The notes: a model not told the origin generated them from the letters alone. 64,000 nt of DNA from an uncultured Gammaproteobacteria bacterium (GCA_947259705.1 CAMYNL010000013.1:75073-139072), one strand, 5' to 3'; positions 72-15,826 are shown, numbered from the stretch's first letter. Made by a program: numbers and translations.

Positions 72-495
72 ATGAAAGCGTGGCAAAGCCAGTCTCATCG
101 GAGATGGTACTGCAAATATCACGTTGTGTTTGCACCGAAGTGTCAGAAGCGTTCGATTTCGGTGCGCCACGGCGGAATATTGGGAATTTGCCGAGGGCTT
201 AATGCGGTCAGCACGGAGTAGCGCTCGTGGAAGGACAAGAGATGTCGGATCATATCCGCCGACGCTTGAGTATTCCACCGCCGTATAACGTGGCGCGCAC
301 GGTAGGGTTCATGAAGGGGAAGTCGGCCGCTCGGATCCACCGGCAGTATCCACATCGAGAGTATCAGTCTACGGGGTTCCATTTCGGGGCCAGGGGTCAC
401 TGCGTCAGCACGATCGGGCTGGACGAGCAGTTTGTTCGGCAGTAGATCAGAAACTTGAGGAACAGGAGTGGGCACCAGGAGAGTTTGCGGTTTGA
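72..495 (+). mobile_element. tnpA: IS200/IS605-family Y1 (HUH) transposase gene, degraded
   Basis: ATG at 72 behind an AAAGGAG RBS gives MKAWQSQSHRRWYCKYHVVFAPK, a typical IS200 TnpA N-terminus. The frame hits TAG at 219-221. Homology continues in another frame (ORF 227-445: SDHIRRRLSIPPPYNVARTVGFMKGKSAARI...FGARGHCVSTIGLDEQFVRQ). TAG at 443-445 sits where the conserved Tyr of ..IR.YIRNQ.. is expected. Confidence 0.75.
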
Positions 496-510
496 GGGCC
501 TTTAGGCCCT
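495..510 (+). other. Perfect 6-bp stem / 4-nt loop hairpin (AGGGCC-ttta-GGCCCT) at the 3' end of the IS200 remnant
   Basis: Inverted repeat read directly from the sequence. IS200/IS605 elements end in structured hairpins, so this may be the element end or a terminator. Confidence 0.35.
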
Positions 511-641
511 TTCCTGGGCGGACTGCGCCGCCGGGGGGGTCTCAAATCACCCTCTCTGCGGGTGGTAGGCAATTCAGCCGCTTAGCGAATAAGGTGGCAG
601 CGACCTTCCGCTTCGGTACGAGCAGTGCGGGAGTTTTCGCC

Positions 642-900
642 CTACATCCGGCTGGTCGTGGCAATCAGGTTGCCGATCTTGGCCGCGAAGTAATTTGTGG
701 TAGTCCGTCCCGATCTATATCCCAGCAGGTCCCGGCGGTCCTCGAACGACACACCCACCGCCATCGATCGGCGGCCGGAGGTGTGCTTGAGGTGATACAC
801 CCTCACCGGCGGCAGCGCCGCCCGCTTCCCTAGCGACCGCGTTTTGCCTGGGTTGAGGCACCCGCAGAGGCCGCGGATTGCCTCCTTCACCTGGCATCCG
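642..900 (-). pseudogene. Tyrosine recombinase (phage-type integrase) C-terminal stub
   Basis: The minus-strand ORF ends ...LPPVRVYHLKHTSGRRSMAVGVSFEDRRDLLGYRSGRTTTNYFAAK. This matches the R-HxLRH...LGH...Y catalytic tail with the histidines replaced by Tyr. The N-terminal ~250 aa are missing because the GntR gene begins at 1008. Confidence 0.45.
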
Positions 901-1007
901 TGTCTGGTCGTTTGTCCGGGTGCGGCGCTGGAAGTGCGCGCCGCCGGCACGGGAGAACTGGACCATGTAGTCAGGCGATCGAGGTCATCCGGCGCGTTCG
1001 GCAAGCA

Positions 1008-1700
1008 TTACGCGGTTGCTGACTCCGCTACGGTCTCGTGCTTGGGCGCGGCGTTGATCATCGATACTAGATCTGCGAAACGTTCTCCCTGGATCAGCAC
1101 ATGGTTCTTCAGGAGTAATTCCGCGTTCTGTTCGTTGCCACCAAGGATCGCGTCTACGATTGCTTTGTGTTCTTCAAAGGACGATCGCATCCGTTGTGGC
1201 ACACGCAGCTGGAGGCGCCGGTACGGCTTTAGTCGGTTGCGTAGTTGTTGGGCCTGGTCGGCCAAGAAACGGTTATAGGAGAGTTCGTAGATAACACCGT
1301 GAAACTGTTCGTTCTCATAGTAATAATCATCGGAGTTGCCGGCCTCGGCGGCGGCGCGGCAGGTGTCCAGTTTTTCGAGTAAGCGGGTGCGCTGTTCCGC
1401 CGCTATGCGCCGTGCTCCGAGTCGGCCGCACATGCCCTCGAGTTCGGCCATGACCTCAAACATTTCGATGATCTCAGGCAGGCCGAGATTGGCCACGAAA
1501 GTGCCGCGCCGCGGAATCGTCTCCACCAGACCGGTGGCGGCGAGCTGCCGGAGCGCCTCGCGGATCGGGGTCCGAGATACCGCGAACCGCTGACTGAGGC
1601 GGACCTCGTCGAGGCGCTCGCCCTGCGCGATACGCCCGTTGACGATGTCGTCCTCCAGCGCATCGCGCAGGTGTTGGATGCGGTGTTGTGGCTTGTTCAC
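1008..1700 (-). CDS. GntR-family transcriptional regulator (FadR/FCD subfamily), MatR-like by context
   Basis: Winged-HTH signature RLSQRFAVSRTPIREALRQLAATGLVETIPRRGTFV followed by a helical FCD-type C-terminal domain. Transcribed divergently from the TRAP/malonyl-CoA decarboxylase operon. Confidence 0.9.
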   Translation of the reverse strand: MNKPQHRIQHLRDALEDDIVNGRIAQGERLDEVRLSQRFAVSRTPIREALRQLAATGLVETIPRRGTFVANLGLPEIIEMFEVMAELEGMCGRLGARRIAAEQRTRLLEKLDTCRAAAEAGNSDDYYYENEQFHGVIYELSYNRFLADQAQQLRNRLKPYRRLQLRVPQRMRSSFEEHKAIVDAILGGNEQNAELLLKNHVLIQGERFADLVSMINAAPKHETVAESATA

Positions 1701-1769
1701 GGTCTATGACGATGTTTGGTCTGCAGCTGCTGGTCGCGATCCCGTGACTCGATCATGTGAATACCACCA

Positions 1770-1825
1770 TTGACACATTGTATCCTGAACGAGTATTCTT
1801 GTATACAATTTATAATAACTTGTAT
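1770..1825 (+). promoter_or_regulatory. Candidate sigma70 promoter plus GntR-type operator array
   Basis: TTGACA at 1770-1775 and TATTCT about 18 bp downstream. The perfect palindrome TTGTATACAA lies at 1799-1808. TTGTAT half-sites occur at 1778, 1799 and 1820, exactly 21 bp apart. AGGAG RBS precedes the ATG at 1861. Confidence 0.4.
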
Positions 1826-1860
1826 CTTACCCCCATAGGCACACCATAGGAGAATCATTC

Positions 1861-2856
1861 ATGAAATCATGCCGCGTTGCGTCTTCGTTATGTGTACTTG
1901 CTTCGCTCCTCGTGGGCGGATCGGCGTTCGCCGCCGACGTTAAGTTGAAGGCCTCCCACCAGTGGAACAATAAGGACGTGCGCCACCAGATGGTACAGCT
2001 CATCGCCGACGAGGTGGCTAAAGCCGGCGTCGGACTGGAGGTGCAGGTTTATCCTTCCAAGTCCCTGTACAAACCGAAAGAGCAGTGGACGCCTCTGACC
2101 CGCGGTCAGCTTGCGATCTCCGCGTTTCCGCTGGCGTATGCCGCCAGCCGTCATCCCGAATTCGACGCCACTTTGATGCCCGGCCTGGTCAAGAACCACG
2201 ATCACGCCGCCAAACTCAACGATTCGGAGTTCATGCAAGACATCAAGAAAATCATCAATGACGCCGGGGTGATGGTACTTTCCGATACCTGGCTGGCCGG
2301 GGGGTTTTCATCCAAGAAGAACTGCATTCTCGAGCCCGATGACGTCAAGGGACAGGTAACGCGAGCCGCGGGCAAAGCTTTCGAACAGATGATGGCCGGC
2401 GCCGGCGCATCCATCGCCTCGATGCCGTCATCGGAAATATATACGGCGATGCAGACCGGCGTGCTGGACGCCGCCAACACCAGTTCTGGCAGCTTTGTGT
2501 CGTATCGCATCTACGAGCAGGTCAAGTGCCTGACTGCTCCCGGTGAGCACGCCCTATGGTTCATGTACGAACCGATCTTGATGTCCAAGAAGGTTTTTGA
2601 CGGCCTGACCAAAGAACAACAGGATGCCTTGCTGGCGGCCGGACAGAAAGCCGAGGAGTTCTTCGACGCCGAAGCGCGTAAGCTCGACAAGACTTTGGAA
2701 GAGACCTTTAAAAAGGCCGGCGTCGAGGTCGTAACCATGAATGCCGAGCAAGCGGCGAAATGGCGTGAAATTGCCAAAACCACTTCTTACGCCGAGTTCA
2801 TCAAAAAAGTGCCAAGCGGCAAATCCCTCATCGATAAGGCGCTCGCCGCCCAGTAA
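1861..2856 (+). CDS. dctP: TRAP transporter substrate-binding protein (DctP family)
   Basis: Signal peptide MKSCRVASSLCVLASLLVGGSAFA, about 330 aa. It is followed by DctQ- and DctM-type permeases. Confidence 0.9.
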   Translation: MKSCRVASSLCVLASLLVGGSAFAADVKLKASHQWNNKDVRHQMVQLIADEVAKAGVGLEVQVYPSKSLYKPKEQWTPLTRGQLAISAFPLAYAASRHPEFDATLMPGLVKNHDHAAKLNDSEFMQDIKKIINDAGVMVLSDTWLAGGFSSKKNCILEPDDVKGQVTRAAGKAFEQMMAGAGASIASMPSSEIYTAMQTGVLDAANTSSGSFVSYRIYEQVKCLTAPGEHALWFMYEPILMSKKVFDGLTKEQQDALLAAGQKAEEFFDAEARKLDKTLEETFKKAGVEVVTMNAEQAAKWREIAKTTSYAEFIKKVPSGKSLIDKALAAQ

Positions 2857-2939
2857 GCTGCATGCAGCCGGGACAGCGGCCCCCATCTTGCCGGGGCCGC
2901 CGTCGGGCGCTCGAATCGAACCCGTTGACGGGAGGCCTT

Positions 2940-3455
2940 GTGCACGGAATTGTCATGTTCATCAACCAGTTGTCTCGGTTATGCGGGGTTATCGCGACGG
3001 CGCTGATTGCGATCTCGATCCTGATCGTGTGTCAGATGGTCATTTTACGCTACGGGTTTGCCGCCTCGACCACGTGGCAAACCGATGTAGTGATCTTTGG
3101 GCTGGTGGGCGCGACCATGATCGGCAGTCCCTATCTACTTCACAGAGGGGCGCACGTCGGGGTCGATCTCATTACCAATATGTTTTCGACGAAGATCCAG
3201 CGCTGGTTCAAAGTGATTTCTGGAGTTGCGATCTTCCTCGTCGGCGCCTCGTTAGCATGGACCGGTACGGAGCTCACTTGGGAGGCTTACGAGGGTAACT
3301 GGCTGTCAGAAACCGTCGCCGAAATTCCGCTATGGATCGCATACTTTGCCATGCCATTCGGTTTTGGCCTGCTCGCTCTACAGGCAGTTGCCGATGTGAT
3401 TGCCGTACTCATGGGTTTCGATGACGCGTTACCCGAAGGGTCGTCCTCCCACTAA
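2940..3455 (+). CDS. dctQ: TRAP transporter small permease (DctQ family)
   Basis: Four-TM hydrophobic ~170 aa protein between dctP and dctM. GGGAGG RBS lies 4 nt before GTG 2940; ATG 2955 is an alternative start. Confidence 0.8.
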   Translation: MHGIVMFINQLSRLCGVIATALIAISILIVCQMVILRYGFAASTTWQTDVVIFGLVGATMIGSPYLLHRGAHVGVDLITNMFSTKIQRWFKVISGVAIFLVGASLAWTGTELTWEAYEGNWLSETVAEIPLWIAYFAMPFGFGLLALQAVADVIAVLMGFDDALPEGSSSH

Positions 3456-3485
3456 TTCCCTTTACGACTGCCTAGAACTCCACTC

Positions 3486-4799
3486 ATGTCACCGATAACG
3501 ATTGGTATCCTGATCGGAGTTACCATGCTTCTGTTTTTGGCATTAGGTATTCCGGTTGCCTTCACCCTGGCTCTGGTCGCGCTGATCTTCTTGATTACTT
3601 TTGAGGGTGTGGGAGTATTCGGCGTGCTGGCCGAGACGTTTTTCTCGGGCCTTGCCGAATTCACCCTGTTATCGATCCCAATGTTCGTGGTTATGGGTAC
3701 GGCGGTGGCGGCGTCGCCCGCCGGCAGGGATTTGTACGAGGCGCTGGACCGCTGGCTAAACCGCGTACCCGGTGGATTGATCATTTCGAATATCGGCGCC
3801 TGCTCGATCTTTGCCGCATTGTCGGGTTCTTCCCCGGCGACTTGTGCGGCGATCGGTAAGATGGGCATTCCCGAAATGCAAAAACGCGGTTATCCGGATG
3901 GTCTCGCCACCGGCGCCATCGCCGCGGGCGGTACCCTGGGGATCCTGATTCCGCCGTCGATCACCATGATTGTTTACGGTATTGCCACCGAGACCTCCAT
4001 TGGTCGCCTGTTTATCGCCGGCCTGCTCCCAGGTCTGATGCTGACCGTGCTGTTCATGACCTGGTCTCTGTATACCAGTTGGCGCAGCGGCCACAGTTTG
4101 TCTGGAAGGAACGACATTACCTGGCAACATCGCTTCGCAGCATTGCCCCGTGTACTGCCGTTTCTACTGATAATCGCCGGGGTGTTGTGGGCCTTGTACG
4201 GTGGCGTTGCCACCCCGTCCGAGGCCGCCGGAGTTGGGGCGTTCTTGTGCCTGTTAATGGTCGCGGTGGTCTACCGCATGTGGCGCCCGAAACAACTCTG
4301 GAAAATCATTTCCAGCTCGATGAGCGAGAGCGTGATGATCCTTATGATCATCGGTGCAGCGGCATTGTTCTCTTACGCGCTCTCGTCTCTGTATGTCACT
4401 CAGACTATCGCTCAGTCGATTGCCGACGCCGGTCTCAACAGGTGGGTATTGATGGGCACGGTCAACGTATTTCTCCTGGTGGCAGGATTTTTTCTGCCAC
4501 CGGTGGCGGTGATCTTAATGACTGCCCCGATCTTATTGCCGATCATCACTGACGCGGGTTTTGACCCTTACTGGTTCGCGGTCGTACTCACTATCAATAT
4601 GGAAATCGGACTGATTACCCCTCCGGTGGGACTAAACCTCTATGTTATCAACGGTATTGTCCCCAATGTGTCGCTCGCAACGATCTTAAAGGGCGCGCTG
4701 CCATTTGTGGTGTGCATGGTCATCGGCATCGTCATCCTGTGCCTGTTTCCGCAGATTGCAACGTGGTTGCCGGATTATTTGATGGGTCGGGCAGTATGA
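3486..4799 (+). CDS. dctM: TRAP transporter large permease (DctM family)
   Basis: 437 aa polytopic protein with typical DctM blocks (SGSSPATCAAIGKMGIPEM, ITPPVGLNLYV). Its stop overlaps the next start in an ATGA. Confidence 0.92.
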   Translation: MSPITIGILIGVTMLLFLALGIPVAFTLALVALIFLITFEGVGVFGVLAETFFSGLAEFTLLSIPMFVVMGTAVAASPAGRDLYEALDRWLNRVPGGLIISNIGACSIFAALSGSSPATCAAIGKMGIPEMQKRGYPDGLATGAIAAGGTLGILIPPSITMIVYGIATETSIGRLFIAGLLPGLMLTVLFMTWSLYTSWRSGHSLSGRNDITWQHRFAALPRVLPFLLIIAGVLWALYGGVATPSEAAGVGAFLCLLMVAVVYRMWRPKQLWKIISSSMSESVMILMIIGAAALFSYALSSLYVTQTIAQSIADAGLNRWVLMGTVNVFLLVAGFFLPPVAVILMTAPILLPIITDAGFDPYWFAVVLTINMEIGLITPPVGLNLYVINGIVPNVSLATILKGALPFVVCMVIGIVILCLFPQIATWLPDYLMGRAV

Positions 4800-11299: not shown

Positions 11300-13006
11300 A
11301 TGACCGGTGATGCCTTGTCGCAGCTTACTGATTTCCTGGTCCGGCTGCGTGCGGGTCACCGTTCAGTTGCCGGTTCTGACGATGACGACGGCCCATCCGC
11401 CGTCTATACACTATCGCTGTGCGTGGCAGCGCTCGAAGACCTGGTGTTTTATGCGTCTAGTTCCCGGCACCGCGTTCCCCAGGTCGTCGTCATGGGGCCC
11501 ACCCAGGTCGGCAAAAGCACGCTGGTGAATCTGCTGCTGGAGCGTGATGCCGCCCGGCCCAGTCCGCTCGCGGGATTTACGCGCAGCCTCCAGGGTTTTG
11601 CTGTCAATGTGGCGGACACCAGCATGGACGCCCTGCGAACATTTATGTCCAAGGGGGGCGACGTCGACGGAGAGGTGTCAGTGGCAGACTTCACCGGCGG
11701 GCGCGGTGGACCGGTTCTGGTCTGGGACACGCCCGATTTCGACTCCCATGCGTCGCGCGAATACCGGACCCTGCTGCCCCGGGTGGCCGGCGTGGCGGAC
11801 GTGCTGCTGTTGGTGTTGAGCAAGGAGAAGTATGCCGACCTGTCGGTGTGGACCATGCTCGACCCTATCAGGATGCTGCAAACGCCACTGGTAGTGTGCC
11901 TGAACAAGACCGACCAGCCCGAGCAACTGTTGGCCCCCTTGACAAAGCACATCGTGGAGTCGGGGTTCGACCCCGGGCAGGTGGCGATATATAGCTTGCC
12001 CTATGTAGGTAGCGCCCAGCTCGAAGAATTGAATGCACTGTCGGCCGCCGCCGACCTGCGCCGCACGGTCATGGAGCACGTCGTCCCGCGTGATCGAACC
12101 GCCCGCGTCGCCGGCGCGAAGCGGCTCATGGAAAAGTATTGGAATGTCTGGATCGCCCCTGTTCGGGAGGAACTCGCGGGCCTGGACGCATGGCAACGGG
12201 ACATCGATGAGGTCTTGGCCGGGGCGCTGGCCGTTTACCGCGAGCAGTATCTCGACCATGCGCGGTACGAGAACACCTTCAACCGCGCCGTGTTGCGGTT
12301 ACTGGAGTTGCTGGAGATTCCGGGCATCGCCGGTGCCATGACGCAGCTGCGGCGGGTCCTGACCTGGCCGCTGCGGCGCCTGCGGGTAGCCGGCGTTGAC
12401 CGCCAGCCCTGGTCCGGCGAAGACGCGGAGACCGAGGTACTGACGGAGCTGTTCGACCATTTATGGCTGGTCCTCGAGCGGCGGTTGAATGACCGTATCG
12501 GCGATGATCATGCCGGTCGTTGGTGTCGGGCCCTGCGCGATGCGCTACCGCCGACCGCGGAGATAAGGCGTGATTACTTATCGGCGGTCGGCGGCTACCA
12601 GAAATCGTTTCAGCCGGAGGTGGAACAGGCCGGCGAGCGACTGTATGACCGCTTGCAGGAGAGCCCGCTGACGCTGAATACGCTGCGCGCGGGACGGGTC
12701 GGCGCTGATGCCGCGGGCGTGGTTGTCGCCCTGAAGACCGGCACAGTGGGGATCACCGAGGCGGTATTGACGCCGGCCATGCTCTCGCTGACGTCGGTGC
12801 TGACCGAGAGCGCCGTGGGCAGGTACGTGGACAGCGTCCGCGATGATCTCAGGCAACGCCAGTACTTGCAGGTCGAGAAGCTCCTGGACGGTCTGCTGCG
12901 GGCGAAGCTGCTGGCGGTTCCGGAAAACATGGATGAGCGGGGTTTGTTCAACATCGACGCCGAAGCGCTCACAGCCGCCGACGCTGCGCGCAGGGCGCTG
13001 ACGTGA
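11300..13006 (+). CDS. Dynamin-like / HSR1-type GTPase, partner 1 (568 aa)
   Basis: P-loop GPTQVGKST, switch-II-like VLVWDTPDFDS and NKTD (G4). A ~360 aa Arg/Leu/Glu-rich helical region follows, then a hydrophobic patch AAGVVVALKTGTVGITEAVLTPAMLSLTSVL. Its stop overlaps the GTG of the next gene. Confidence 0.8.
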   Translation: MTGDALSQLTDFLVRLRAGHRSVAGSDDDDGPSAVYTLSLCVAALEDLVFYASSSRHRVPQVVVMGPTQVGKSTLVNLLLERDAARPSPLAGFTRSLQGFAVNVADTSMDALRTFMSKGGDVDGEVSVADFTGGRGGPVLVWDTPDFDSHASREYRTLLPRVAGVADVLLLVLSKEKYADLSVWTMLDPIRMLQTPLVVCLNKTDQPEQLLAPLTKHIVESGFDPGQVAIYSLPYVGSAQLEELNALSAAADLRRTVMEHVVPRDRTARVAGAKRLMEKYWNVWIAPVREELAGLDAWQRDIDEVLAGALAVYREQYLDHARYENTFNRAVLRLLELLEIPGIAGAMTQLRRVLTWPLRRLRVAGVDRQPWSGEDAETEVLTELFDHLWLVLERRLNDRIGDDHAGRWCRALRDALPPTAEIRRDYLSAVGGYQKSFQPEVEQAGERLYDRLQESPLTLNTLRAGRVGADAAGVVVALKTGTVGITEAVLTPAMLSLTSVLTESAVGRYVDSVRDDLRQRQYLQVEKLLDGLLRAKLLAVPENMDERGLFNIDAEALTAADAARRALT

Positions 13007-14550
13007 CTGCGGAACTGGAACCGGCCTTCGCCAGGCTTCATGAATGGGCGCGTCAGGCGCAGCAGGGCGGATGGCTGAGCAGGGCGGACGTGCAGGAGAT
13101 GGGGCGTATAGAACGCCAGAACGCGGACGAGTTGTTTGCCGCCGGCAAGCCGCGGCCGTTACTGGTGGGGCTGTTCGGCGGCACCGGGGTGGGCAAGAGC
13201 AGTCTGCTCAACCGCCTGGCCGGGGAGAACATCGCCCGGGTGGGCGCGGAGCGGCCGACGTCGCGGGAAGTCACGCTCTATCTGCACCAGGACCATGCCC
13301 TCGAATCATTGCCCCCGGAGTTTCCGCTGGCCCGTACCCGGATCCAGTATCATCACGACCGGCAACGCCGTGACATCGCCTGGATCGACATGCCGGACAT
13401 CGACAGCACGCACAGGGCGAACCGTGAACTTGTGTTCGCCTGGCTGCCGTACATCGACTGGCTGATCTACGTAGTGAGCCCGGAACGGTATCGCGACGAC
13501 GCCGGTTGGAAGGTGCTGCGCGAGCGTGGACACAGGCACGAATGGCTGTTTGTCATCAACCACTGGGACACCGCCGAGCCGGAGCAGTATGACGCCTTCG
13601 TTTCCGACCTGGCCGGCGCCGGTATCGACCGGCCCAGGGTGTTGCGTACCAGCTGCACGATCGACTGTGAAGAGGACGAGTTTGCGCGGCTGGAAGAACT
13701 CATACGAAACGCCATCGAACAACATGGTCTGGAGGAACTCAAGCGACTCGGTATCCTGGCGAAACTGCGCGACCTGGCACAGCTGAGCGATGATTTCCGC
13801 TCGCGCCTGGGCAGCGAGGAGGCGTGGCAGACGGTTTGCGGGCGAATCCGGGAACGCTCGGGCAATATCCTGTCTCGCCTGCGGCAGTCGCTGGCCTGGT
13901 CGTTTGCGCTCATCTCCGGCCGGTTCCCGGAGCCCCGCCGCGGCTGGCGCGACAAGGGCGGTATGCGGCAGCGCAATATCCCGGCCGCGGATGAGCTGCG
14001 CGCGGCGATCTGGGGGCCGCAGGCGGATAGCTATGTTGCCGATGTGGTCAACGAGGCGGTGGTGGCCGCCGCGGAAAACGGCGTCCCGGTGGAGCCAGTG
14101 GAACGGGCAGTGGGGGTGATGGCCCGGCAGGTGCCCGGGTTGGTCACCGAGATTTCGTTGTCCCGCCTGCGGCAGGCGCTGCTGAAACCGGGACCTGCCT
14201 GGCAGCGGGCCCTGTTCCGGCTGACCGGGGCTCTGCGCAGGGTATTGCCCGCGGCGGCTGCTGCATGGGCGGTATATCACCTGGTAACCCGTTTTCACGC
14301 GGGAACCACGGGGCGGGGCGAGTTGCTGGGGCTGGACTTCGCGGTCCACAGTTTCGTGCTCATCTCCTGCGCCTGGTTGCTGCCCTACCTGATGCACCGC
14401 CTGTCCAAACCGTCACTGCGCAAGGCTGCGCGACGCGGCCTGGAACAGGGCGCCGCCGCTGCCATTCAGCAGTCTGAACAGGAGTTGGCCTCAGTACTGG
14501 AGAAGCTGGGAGAGGAGCGCCGGCAGCTGCTGCTGCAACTCAAGGATTGA
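13003..14550 (+). CDS. Dynamin-like GTPase, partner 2 (515 aa) with C-terminal hydrophobic hairpin
   Basis: P-loop GGTGVGKSS, IAWIDMPDIDS and NHWD (degenerate G4). Helical stalk, then predicted membrane hairpin AAAAWAVYHLV...FAVHSFVLISCAWLLPYLM and a terminal coiled segment. Paralogous to partner 1 (shared D.PD.DS ... V.S.E.Y.D ... N..D spacing). Confidence 0.8.
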   Translation: MTAELEPAFARLHEWARQAQQGGWLSRADVQEMGRIERQNADELFAAGKPRPLLVGLFGGTGVGKSSLLNRLAGENIARVGAERPTSREVTLYLHQDHALESLPPEFPLARTRIQYHHDRQRRDIAWIDMPDIDSTHRANRELVFAWLPYIDWLIYVVSPERYRDDAGWKVLRERGHRHEWLFVINHWDTAEPEQYDAFVSDLAGAGIDRPRVLRTSCTIDCEEDEFARLEELIRNAIEQHGLEELKRLGILAKLRDLAQLSDDFRSRLGSEEAWQTVCGRIRERSGNILSRLRQSLAWSFALISGRFPEPRRGWRDKGGMRQRNIPAADELRAAIWGPQADSYVADVVNEAVVAAAENGVPVEPVERAVGVMARQVPGLVTEISLSRLRQALLKPGPAWQRALFRLTGALRRVLPAAAAAWAVYHLVTRFHAGTTGRGELLGLDFAVHSFVLISCAWLLPYLMHRLSKPSLRKAARRGLEQGAAAAIQQSEQELASVLEKLGEERRQLLLQLKD

Positions 14551-15826
14551 GAATGCGCGCGCGCAAGGTCCCGTCGACGTGCTTCAGTTGTTCCAGCCGT
14601 TCGGCATCGAAGCCATCGGCAGCCTCGAAATCGATCACGACGTAGCCGATCTGGTCGTCCGTCTGCAGGTACTGACCGGATATGTTGACCCCGCTCTGAG
14701 AGAAGACGGCATTAAGCGCGGCCAGCACGCCAGGCTGGTTTTGGTGTATGTGCAGCAGACGGTATGTGCCGGCATGAGGTGGCAACGATACTTGGGGAAA
14801 ATTTACCGCGGACACGGAGGACCCATTGCCATCATACTTGATGAGCTTCTCCGCCACCTCGACCCCGATGCTTTGCTGCGCTTCCTGCGTGCTGCCACCT
14901 ACATGGGGCGTCAACAGCACATTGTCGAGCCCGCGCAGCGGGGAGATGAACTCGTCCTGGTTGGATTTCGGTTCCTCGGGAAAGACGTCCACGGCCGCGC
15001 CACGCAAGCGTCCTTCCTGCAATGCTTCCACCAGCGCCCCGATATCCACGACCGTGCCGCGCGAGGCGTTGATGAAGGCCGCGCCATGCTTCATCTTGGC
15101 GAAGGCGCCATGGCCCATCATGTTGCGGGTGTCGGGTGACTCGGGCACGTGCAGGGTCACTACATCAGCCGTATGCAGTAACGCCGCCAGGCTGCGCACA
15201 GGCGTGGCATTGCCCAGGGCCAGCTTGGTCTCGATATCGTAAAAGAAAACACGCATTCCCAGTGCTTCCGCCAGCAGACCGACCTGGGTGCCGATATGCC
15301 CGTAACCGACGATCCCCAGGCTCTTGCCGCGCACCTCGAAGGCGCCGGTTGCCGACTTCATCCACTGCCCCTGGTGCGCCAGGGCACTCTTGCGCGGGAT
15401 GTCCCGGAGCAACAGGATGGCTTCCGCCAGGACCAGCTCGGCGACGCTCCGCGTGTTGGAGAAAGGCGCATTGAACACCGGTATGCCGCGCGCCCGGGCA
15501 GCGACGAGGTCAACCTGGTTGGTGCCGATGCAGTAACAGCAGATGGCCCTCAACTGGGGCGACGCGTCAAGTACCCGTTCGGTGACCTGGGTACGCGATC
15601 TGATGCCAAGGTAGTGCGTGTCCCGCACGGCCTGCAGTATTTCTGCCTCGGGGAGCGCGCCGTCTCGTTGCACCACCTGTGAATAACCGGCTTCCAGCAG
15701 GGTGTCGGCGGCACTCTGGTGGATGCCCTCCAGTAACAGCACGTTGATCTCCGTCCTGGGGCGCGAGAACCGCACGGGTGCCGAATTGGTTGACCGTTCT
15801 TCTGTGCTGGTGCTGTTCATGGCCAC
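14540..15826 (-). CDS. serA: D-3-phosphoglycerate dehydrogenase with C-terminal ACT domain
   Basis: About 410-428 aa E. coli-type SerA: INVLLLEGIHQSAADTL N-terminus, NAD-binding GIVGYGHIGTQVG, and an ACT-like tail (HIHQNQPGVLAALN). Confidence 0.9.
   Translation of the reverse strand: MAMNSTSTEERSTNSAPVRFSRPRTEINVLLLEGIHQSAADTLLEAGYSQVVQRDGALPEAEILQAVRDTHYLGIRSRTQVTERVLDASPQLRAICCYCIGTNQVDLVAARARGIPVFNAPFSNTRSVAELVLAEAILLLRDIPRKSALAHQGQWMKSATGAFEVRGKSLGIVGYGHIGTQVGLLAEALGMRVFFYDIETKLALGNATPVRSLAALLHTADVVTLHVPESPDTRNMMGHGAFAKMKHGAAFINASRGTVVDIGALVEALQEGRLRGAAVDVFPEEPKSNQDEFISPLRGLDNVLLTPHVGGSTQEAQQSIGVEVAEKLIKYDGNGSSVSAVNFPQVSLPPHAGTYRLLHIHQNQPGVLAALNAVFSQSGVNISGQYLQTDDQIGYVVIDFEAADGFDAERLEQLKHVDGTLRARILNP

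Follow-up and report, generated by a model that had tools for sequence, protein, structure and literature searches.

Two overlapping genes at positions 11300 to 14550 of a 64,000-nucleotide stretch of DNA from an uncultured gammaproteobacterium (GCA_947259705.1 CAMYNL010000013.1:75073-139072; hereafter the window), here called gene A (dynA-like) and gene B (dynB-like), encode P-loop GTPases with an Asp in place of the glycine of the G3 (DxxG) motif. The pair is quite probably a distant member of the DynA/DynB-type family of dynamin-like proteins (DLPs), a self-contained heterotypic operon whose products are membrane-bound and likely act at the division site. This reading is drawn from a gene pair of Nonomuraea gerenzanensis, which shares the variant motif, the gene order, the overlap and a hydrophobic hairpin with the window pair, and from matching peptides encoded by primers used for the Streptomyces genes. 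It gives a widespread, mislabelled protein pair a specific identity, that of DynA/DynB-type DLPs.

Gene A (11300..13006, ATG start) specifies 568 amino acids and gene B (13003..14550, GTG start) 515, according to the open reading frame (ORF) listing; both lie on the plus strand, as do all features of the pair given below. The junction reads acGTGAct, so that the four bases 13003..13006 are common to the TGA stop of A and the GTG start of B. This GTGA overlap had been reported in an initial annotation made from the sequence alone. Protein A consists of N-terminal helices, a compact G domain (approximately residues 57-260) and a long helical stalk, and protein B of a G domain (approximately residues 50-225), a helical stalk, a predicted transmembrane hairpin and a C-terminal helix. 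The G domains of A and B are paralogous: they are 28% identical over 156 residues (BLASTP, E 1e-4), and the family profiles align with an hhalign probability of 98.8 (E 6.7e-17). The profile alignment covers the G domain only, the helical parts showing none by sequence. The pair is real and conserved, and the annotated observation of a coupled, paralogous GTPase pair with an Asp at G3 is confirmed; the interpretation that had been placed upon it is partly supported.

Both proteins retain the P-loop, the switch I Thr (candidate G2) and the Walker B Asp. The P-loop (G1) of A, GPTQVGKS, lies at 11495..11518 (residues 66-73), and GPTQxGKS is invariant across the A family; that of B is GGTGVGKS (13177..13200, residues 59-66). 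The switch II (G3) motif reads DTPDFDS in A (11726..11746, residues 143-149) and DMPDIDS in B (13387..13407, residues 129-135), with Asp146 and Asp132, respectively, at the glycine position. Neither protein therefore has the canonical G1-G4 set with DxxG by which the dynamin superfamily is recognised, G3 being DxxD in both. An Asp is found at this position in 119 of 119 A-type and at least 256 of 258 B-type proteins. A second signature, a [KR]-Y-x-D loop, comes after the strand that follows G3 in A and B alike. It reads SKEKYAD in A (11819..11839), where K177, Y178 and D180 are invariant, and SPERYRDD in B (13477..13500), where P160, R162, Y163 and D165 are invariant; the two loops line up when the family profiles are compared by hhalign.

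The initial annotation quoted the G3 motifs as WDTPDFDS and IDMPDIDS and allowed that the Asp might reflect a misalignment, with a canonical DxxG nearby. The alignments and models place the Asp at the glycine position proper, because the beta strand preceding the motif ends in the Walker B Asp in both structural models (residues 139-143 of A and 125-129 of B), because the B profile aligns in register with a canonical DLP of the same genome (locus L081; DMPD on DTPG and NHWD on NKID, in an hhalign alignment that is itself weak), and because no conserved DxxG was found near G3 in the A family alignment. A DVDG string at residues 121-124 of A was considered as the canonical motif and rejected, since it lies in a variable, gapped region and is not conserved. 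D-x-P-D-x-D-S is a signature of the whole family and no local peculiarity.

The G4 motifs differ from what had been supposed. The initial annotation regarded NHWD of B (13558..13569, residues 186-189) as degenerate next to NKTD of A (11903..11914, residues 202-205), and proposed an active plus a regulatory subunit. In the family alignment, the Asn and Asp of the B pattern, N-[HQR]-W-D, are invariant. It is in the A family that the guanine-specifying Asp is mostly lost (NKTT, NKAS, NKLG and others) while the Asn and Lys are kept, and the NKTD of the window is a minority form. Since B keeps the Asn and Asp of N-x-W-D and A loses the Asp of NKxD, a split into active A and regulatory B is not supported; moreover, both proteins keep the P-loop along with the Thr of switch I and the Asp of Walker B. 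Any decay of a G4 would, on this conservation pattern, be in A, whose base specificity may be relaxed. With an invariant Asp in place of the DxxG glycine, and one partner lacking a conserved Asp in NKxD, the family departs cleanly from the rules that GTPases follow.

A more divergent and shorter pair from another gammaproteobacterial family bears on the same point (locus L089, G110:C120:20500-26000, ORFs 963..2474 and 2398..3894). Its proteins, of 503 and approximately 474-498 amino acids, keep DTPDFDS and DTPDIDS and carry the canonical G4 motifs NKCD and NKSD. With DxPD and a canonical NKxD thus combined in both proteins, the N-x-W-D of the main B clade looks derived. The idea of B as a degenerate, regulatory subunit was rejected on the family conservation given above.

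The evidence for the family assignment comes from a chromosome-sized record of Nonomuraea gerenzanensis. It holds an A-like ORF with GSTGAGKST, DTPDIDS and ARYAD and, after a 4-nt overlap, a B-like ORF with GGTGSGKSS, DLPDHDS, PQKYAD, NQAD and a C-terminal transmembrane hairpin. Profiles of the window's A family (A1) and B family (A2) were compared with this pair by hhalign, and the pair aligns to them at probabilities of 98.4-98.9. The E-values are 5.8e-15 for A1 against the A-like protein, 2.4e-11 for A1 against the B-like protein, 3.7e-17 for A2 against the B-like protein and 2.7e-16 for A2 against the A-like protein. Homology of the window families to the Nonomuraea pair is clear from these profiles at the family level. 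The actinobacterial B-like family is very large (at least 6,990 matches), and its members are named GTP-binding protein, ABC transporter, YfjP family GTPase or EngB.

In Streptomyces coelicolor, SCO2685 and SCO2684 correspond to DynA and DynB, and DynB is vnz_12105 in S. venezuelae (Schlimpert et al., 2017, cited through PMC8748795; bioRxiv 10.1101/2025.06.23.661029). The S. venezuelae dynA is presumably the neighbouring vnz_12100. This dynamin-like pair stabilises the Z-rings of sporulation; DynB has two transmembrane segments and recruits DynA (PMC8748795). The P-loop mutants DynA K74A and DynB K129A alter function, and expression of DynAB stops division in E. coli (bioRxiv 10.1101/2025.06.23.661029). 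The primers for the K74A mutation of S. venezuelae DynA encode STGAG[K]STLVNSLVG, which the Nonomuraea A-like protein matches at 9/10 and 7/10 positions. Those for DynB K129A encode TVIAIAGATGSG[K]STLFNALAGVPVSE; here the B-like protein agrees at 10/15 and 10/17. When the 27-residue DynB peptide was searched by tblastn against a 7.3-Gb collection that includes the whole Nonomuraea genome, the B-like gene ranked first. The reverse transcription/quantitative PCR primers for sco2684 translate to GLVLID(L) and VLHERY, peptides that would fit the G3 strand and the ERY loop. These peptides lie approximately 120 bp apart, as in family B; peptides of six residues are weakly diagnostic alone. Finally, primers for the end of dynA and the start of dynB in S. 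coelicolor reconstruct ...GAGAGGTGACCGCC, that is, the same GTGA overlap as in the window, and the window pair thus has the overlapping stop and start of a coupled dynA-then-dynB operon. The initial annotation had not recognised the G3 motif as a characterised variant. It is instead the signature of a large family that, on the Nonomuraea and primer evidence, includes the genetically studied Streptomyces DynA and DynB. No paper examining the motif or the mechanism of an Asp variant was found in a literature search for D-x-P-D-x-D-S and for NRWD strings.

The window pair and Streptomyces DynA/DynB, then, share head-to-tail genes with a GTGA stop/start overlap, a soluble first protein and a second one anchored by two transmembrane helices (predicted in the window), and P-loop G domains in both. 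Judged through the Nonomuraea pair, they also have in common a D-x-P-D-x-D-S motif in switch II and the [KR]-Y-x-D loop. They differ in that the window pair comes from a Gram-negative, non-sporulating gammaproteobacterium of marine sediment, in the N-x-W-D G4 of B and in the absence of SepF from the genome. Over the G domain, identity to the DynA/DynB type is limited to approximately 25-33%, and the stalks give no alignment at the sequence level.

Support of another kind comes from structure prediction. AlphaFold2 (AF2) models of A and B as monomers, made from 30-sequence alignments, have a mean predicted local distance difference test (pLDDT) of 84.2 and 84.9, respectively, and the A model a predicted TM-score (pTM) of 0.81. 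These are confident models. In both, short helices at the N terminus precede a compact, Era-sized G domain of approximately 175-205 residues, and a long helical region follows. Foldseek returned DLPs and mitofusins with best-match E-values of 1e-9 to 1e-5 for the two models. The best Protein Data Bank (PDB) matches of A are BDLP (bacterial dynamin-like protein; 2.5e-7), then Drp1, OPA1, SynDLP, Cj-DLP, Fzo1, MFN1 and IniA. Those of B are Cj-DLP1/2 (1.6e-9), BDLP, IniA and MFN1, with LeoA at rank 30; MFN2 is also within the top matches of the two models. The combination of a G domain, a helical neck and trunk and a membrane-binding tip is that of a BDLP-type DLP. The BDLP-like architecture that the initial annotation had proposed for this translationally coupled pair is thus borne out by the matches to BDLP, Cj-DLP1/2, IniA, mitofusin/Fzo1, Drp1 and OPA1.

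The same annotation placed a hydrophobic paddle or hairpin in each protein; one of transmembrane strength is present in B only. Residues 410-464 of B (14230..14394) form a hydrophobic helical hairpin, a predicted membrane anchor, with family-mean Kyte-Doolittle values of transmembrane strength (1.43 for residues 410-428 and 1.93 for 446-464); in the model, it falls on helices 399-435 and 444-467. In A, a conserved helix-turn-helix at residues 467-506 (12698..12817) has many invariant residues but is moderately hydrophobic: its family-mean values of 1.37-1.48 fall under the usual transmembrane threshold, and the pLDDT is lower here. It is a candidate paddle or B-contacting surface. A hairpin in B and a sub-threshold segment in A agree with the two transmembrane segments of DynB and none in DynA.

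Several points weigh against the DynA/DynB assignment. The Streptomyces link was made through the primer-encoded peptides (Table S2 of the preprint) and the Nonomuraea proxy, not through full DynA and DynB sequences. One-to-one orthology with the actinobacterial pair is weakly resolved by the profiles: A1 favours the A-like protein (score 116.8 vs 91.5), and A2 is near-equal for both (132.9 vs 125.8). The Foldseek TM-scores are low (0.2-0.34), a range expected of flexible multidomain proteins, and Era, EngB, Toc34 and GIMAP are about as good matches for the isolated G domain. The likeness of the models to DLPs accordingly lies in overall architecture and not in strict membership of Dynamin_N. 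When the PDB was searched by sequence, with the single proteins or the B profile, similarity to solved DLPs went no further than the P-loop, so that sequence gives no route to them. Of the septal partners of DynAB, namely SepF2, SsgB and SepX, the last is described as actinobacteria-specific (PMC8748795). SepF was absent from the window's genome in a search whose positive controls worked. The SsgA/SsgB family had no match in the genome; the control genomes matched none either, so this search is uninformative.

With SepF absent and SepX specific to actinobacteria, the cellular role of the pair may differ from that in Streptomyces. Since, in addition, the SsgA-family search says nothing either way, a general membrane-maintenance role remains a live rival. 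The pair would then be a maintenance or stress system comparable to DynA of B. subtilis or IniA/IniC of mycobacteria, one that seals or remodels damaged membrane and has no dedicated division role. We regard this as rather unlikely, though worth keeping in view. IniA is indeed within the top structural matches of B, and two canonical DLPs are encoded in the same genome, so roles may be split between systems. However, the nearest sequence relatives are of the DynAB type, not IniA or Bacillus DynA, and stress or antibiotic-response genes adjoin the pair in none of the lineages represented among the related loci.

The domain databases point, at first sight, in yet another direction. The only full-length Pfam domain match of A is MMR_HSR1 (6.5e-9); its 12.7 bits against Dynamin_N (cut-off 27) stem from a touch at the P-loop. 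B reaches 28.3 bits against Dynamin_N, over profile positions 1-45 of 168 only, and also matches MMR_HSR1. Neither protein thus matches Dynamin_N above the gathering score across the whole domain, as BDLP-type proteins do. Nothing in NCBIfam exceeds the cut-offs; weak matches to Era, Der and MnmE fall far below them. Together with the Era-sized G domain and public names such as '50S ribosome-binding GTPase' and 'EngB', this could mean that A and B are not dynamin-like but Era/EngB-type (TEES) GTPases with unrelated helical extensions, involved for example in ribosome or protein-complex assembly. Such an origin seems improbable, and a ribosome-related role unlikely. The public names do no more than repeat that of the Pfam family. 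In the full-length models, both the G domain and the stalk match DLPs and mitofusins, and a transmembrane hairpin inside the stalk is the BDLP/mitofusin layout; DynA and DynB, apparently related to the pair, behave like DLPs associated with membranes. The names given to homologues in public records are varied: besides the two above (the latter as 'EngB required for normal cell division'), they include 'ABC transporter', 'EcfA2', 'MnmE/TrmE', 'SAR1 family' and 'YfjP family GTPase', and none reflects the dynamin-like architecture.

Among solved DLPs, the Campylobacter jejuni proteins Cj-DLP1 and Cj-DLP2 (PDB 5owv, 5oxf), the best structural match of B, are also a pair, in which hydrolysis requires heterotypic G-dimerisation (PMC6104087). 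They exceed the window proteins in size, at 84.5 and 71.2 kDa, and their G3 is a canonical DxxG. Their Dynamin_N domain is complete, they contain no transmembrane hairpin like that of B, and sequence similarity to the window pair is not detectable past the P-loop. Nostoc BDLP1, the top structural match of A, and the mitofusins/Fzo1 share the overall layout: a neck and trunk of helices accompany the G domain, the tip bears a hydrophobic paddle or transmembrane pair, and a C-terminal helix leads back. They differ from the window pair in their canonical DxxG and larger G domain, and they are encoded by single genes or unlinked paralogues; the TM-scores to them are only 0.2-0.35. Mitofusins have a G4 of the N-R-W-D type with a Trp switch. 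Their adjacent Arg259 and Trp260 have been described (PMC6820788).

How the pair might work can be sketched from these parallels. B, the DynB-like protein, would be held in the cytoplasmic membrane by its C-terminal helical hairpin, and A, the DynA-like protein, would be produced in step with B through translational coupling and then recruited to it. Nucleotide binding in both compact G domains would control their pairing and hence the assembly of a membrane-bound complex, presumably a heterodimer of A and B; assembly of this kind is shown for Cj-DLP1/2 (PMC6104087) and inferred for DynAB. The assembled complex might tether, shape or stabilise the membrane, and could in this way remodel it. 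The division site, by analogy with the Streptomyces relatives, is our best guess for where it would act. The D-x-P-D-x-D-S motif and the [KR]-Y-x-D loop would be ancestral family signatures and probably part of a nucleotide-dependent interface between G domains; the G3 Asp may have a catalytic role. DynAB-type pairs occur in Gram-negative marine bacteria without the known Streptomyces partners, which raises the question of a core, partner-independent job.

A bolder proposal, which we put forward tentatively and consider doubtful as a whole, is that DxPDxD[ST] and [KR]YxD define a mechanistically distinct, cross-phylum branch of dynamins. The branch would span Actinomycetota, DynAB included, Gammaproteobacteria and Planctomycetota, the gamma-phosphate-sensing Gly having become acidic in both partners. 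The usual switch II mechanism would give way, in hydrolysis or G-G dimerisation, to a charge pair across the heterodimer or to an additional cation, and the A-type subunit, which lacks the guanine-specifying Asp, might use another nucleotide.

The family is widely distributed. A word-indexed search returned more than 360 homologues of A and more than 1,873 of B, and a hidden Markov model scan of 1.84 billion 50%-identity cluster representatives detected 336 proteins of the B family at E<=1e-30. The order A-then-B is found at 74 of 80 related genome loci. Of 59 loci, 54 have the stop of A overlapping the start of B by 1-11 nt, the overlap being 4 nt long in 31 of them. Within the window organism's own family, 18 of 20 genomes carry the B gene, while 21 genomes from sister families of the same order lack it. 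Across 396 sampled well-assembled Gammaproteobacteria it occurs in 23 (approximately 6%), in a pattern that follows families. The pair is also found on long contigs of metagenome-assembled genomes of Planctomycetota.

Ordinary housekeeping genes surround the pair (RarA, HtpG, TatBC, phosphoglucomutase, copper ATPase) and are conserved within lineages only. A conserved third gene was sought without success, no neighbour cluster occurring in more than 10 of the 80 loci. The pair is inherited vertically among these genes. The surroundings bear on a suggestion of the initial annotation, which had linked the pair to LeoABC/Eleos-type anti-phage systems and raised the prospect of defence islands. 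Paired DLPs do serve in defence (PMC4159319; PMC12998192), LeoA (PDB 4aur) is the best PADLOC match of both proteins, as well as rank 30 structurally for B, and the LeoA/LeoBC genes are likewise a bacterial DLP pair. Nevertheless, an anti-phage function of the Eleos kind is highly improbable. Nothing in PADLOC exceeds the cut-off; the LeoA matches amount to approximately 25-45 residues around the P-loop (20-25 bits), as opposed to full-length matches to LeoA and LeoBC in a mobile or defence-island setting. The pair has no defence genes in its vicinity, and a whole bacterial family has inherited it vertically within stable housekeeping surroundings. Phage homologues were not found, and the plasmids collection yielded a single match, to the chromosome-sized Nonomuraea record, so that mobile elements are without true homologues.

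Some carriers depart from the usual arrangement. At loci L031 and L032, more than 1.5 kb of sequence is present upstream of B and the A gene was not detected there, so the pair is occasionally split or partly lost. A relative from the same family as the window organism has a second, orphan B-like gene (locus L090, G007:C3:115000-121500, ORFs 1610..2794 and 2905..4554), which lies directly 3' of an ArsA/Get3-like ATPase gene and has no A gene beside it. Its 549-residue product carries DTADIDS and NHWD and is without a clear hydrophobic hairpin. Going by organism names only, many carriers (loci L001-L080) give the impression of belonging to lineages known for internal membranes or inclusions: Chromatiales, Methylococcaceae, Methylothermaceae, Thiotrichales, Sedimenticolaceae, tubeworm symbionts and Planctomycetota.

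In the window, the 3' end of gene B (stop codon at 14548-14550) overlaps that of the convergent serA gene (ORF 14540..15826, minus strand) by 11 nt, which leaves no space for an intergenic terminator; no terminator-like site was found. Low-depth metatranscriptome contigs of at least 99% identity cover parts of A and B, and one crosses the A/B junction. This is weak evidence for expression of both genes, and the pair is probably expressed.

The two canonical DLPs of the same genome are unlinked and similar to each other (660 and 656 amino acids). They are encoded on contig C6 of genome G000 (66805-70392; L081, ORF 328..2310, minus strand) and on contig C5 (105784-109377; L082, ORF 1327..3297, plus strand), have DTPG at G3 and NKID at G4, and match Dynamin_N in full, at 62.6 and 61 bits. 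Together with A and B, the organism thus has four DLP-type proteins of two kinds.

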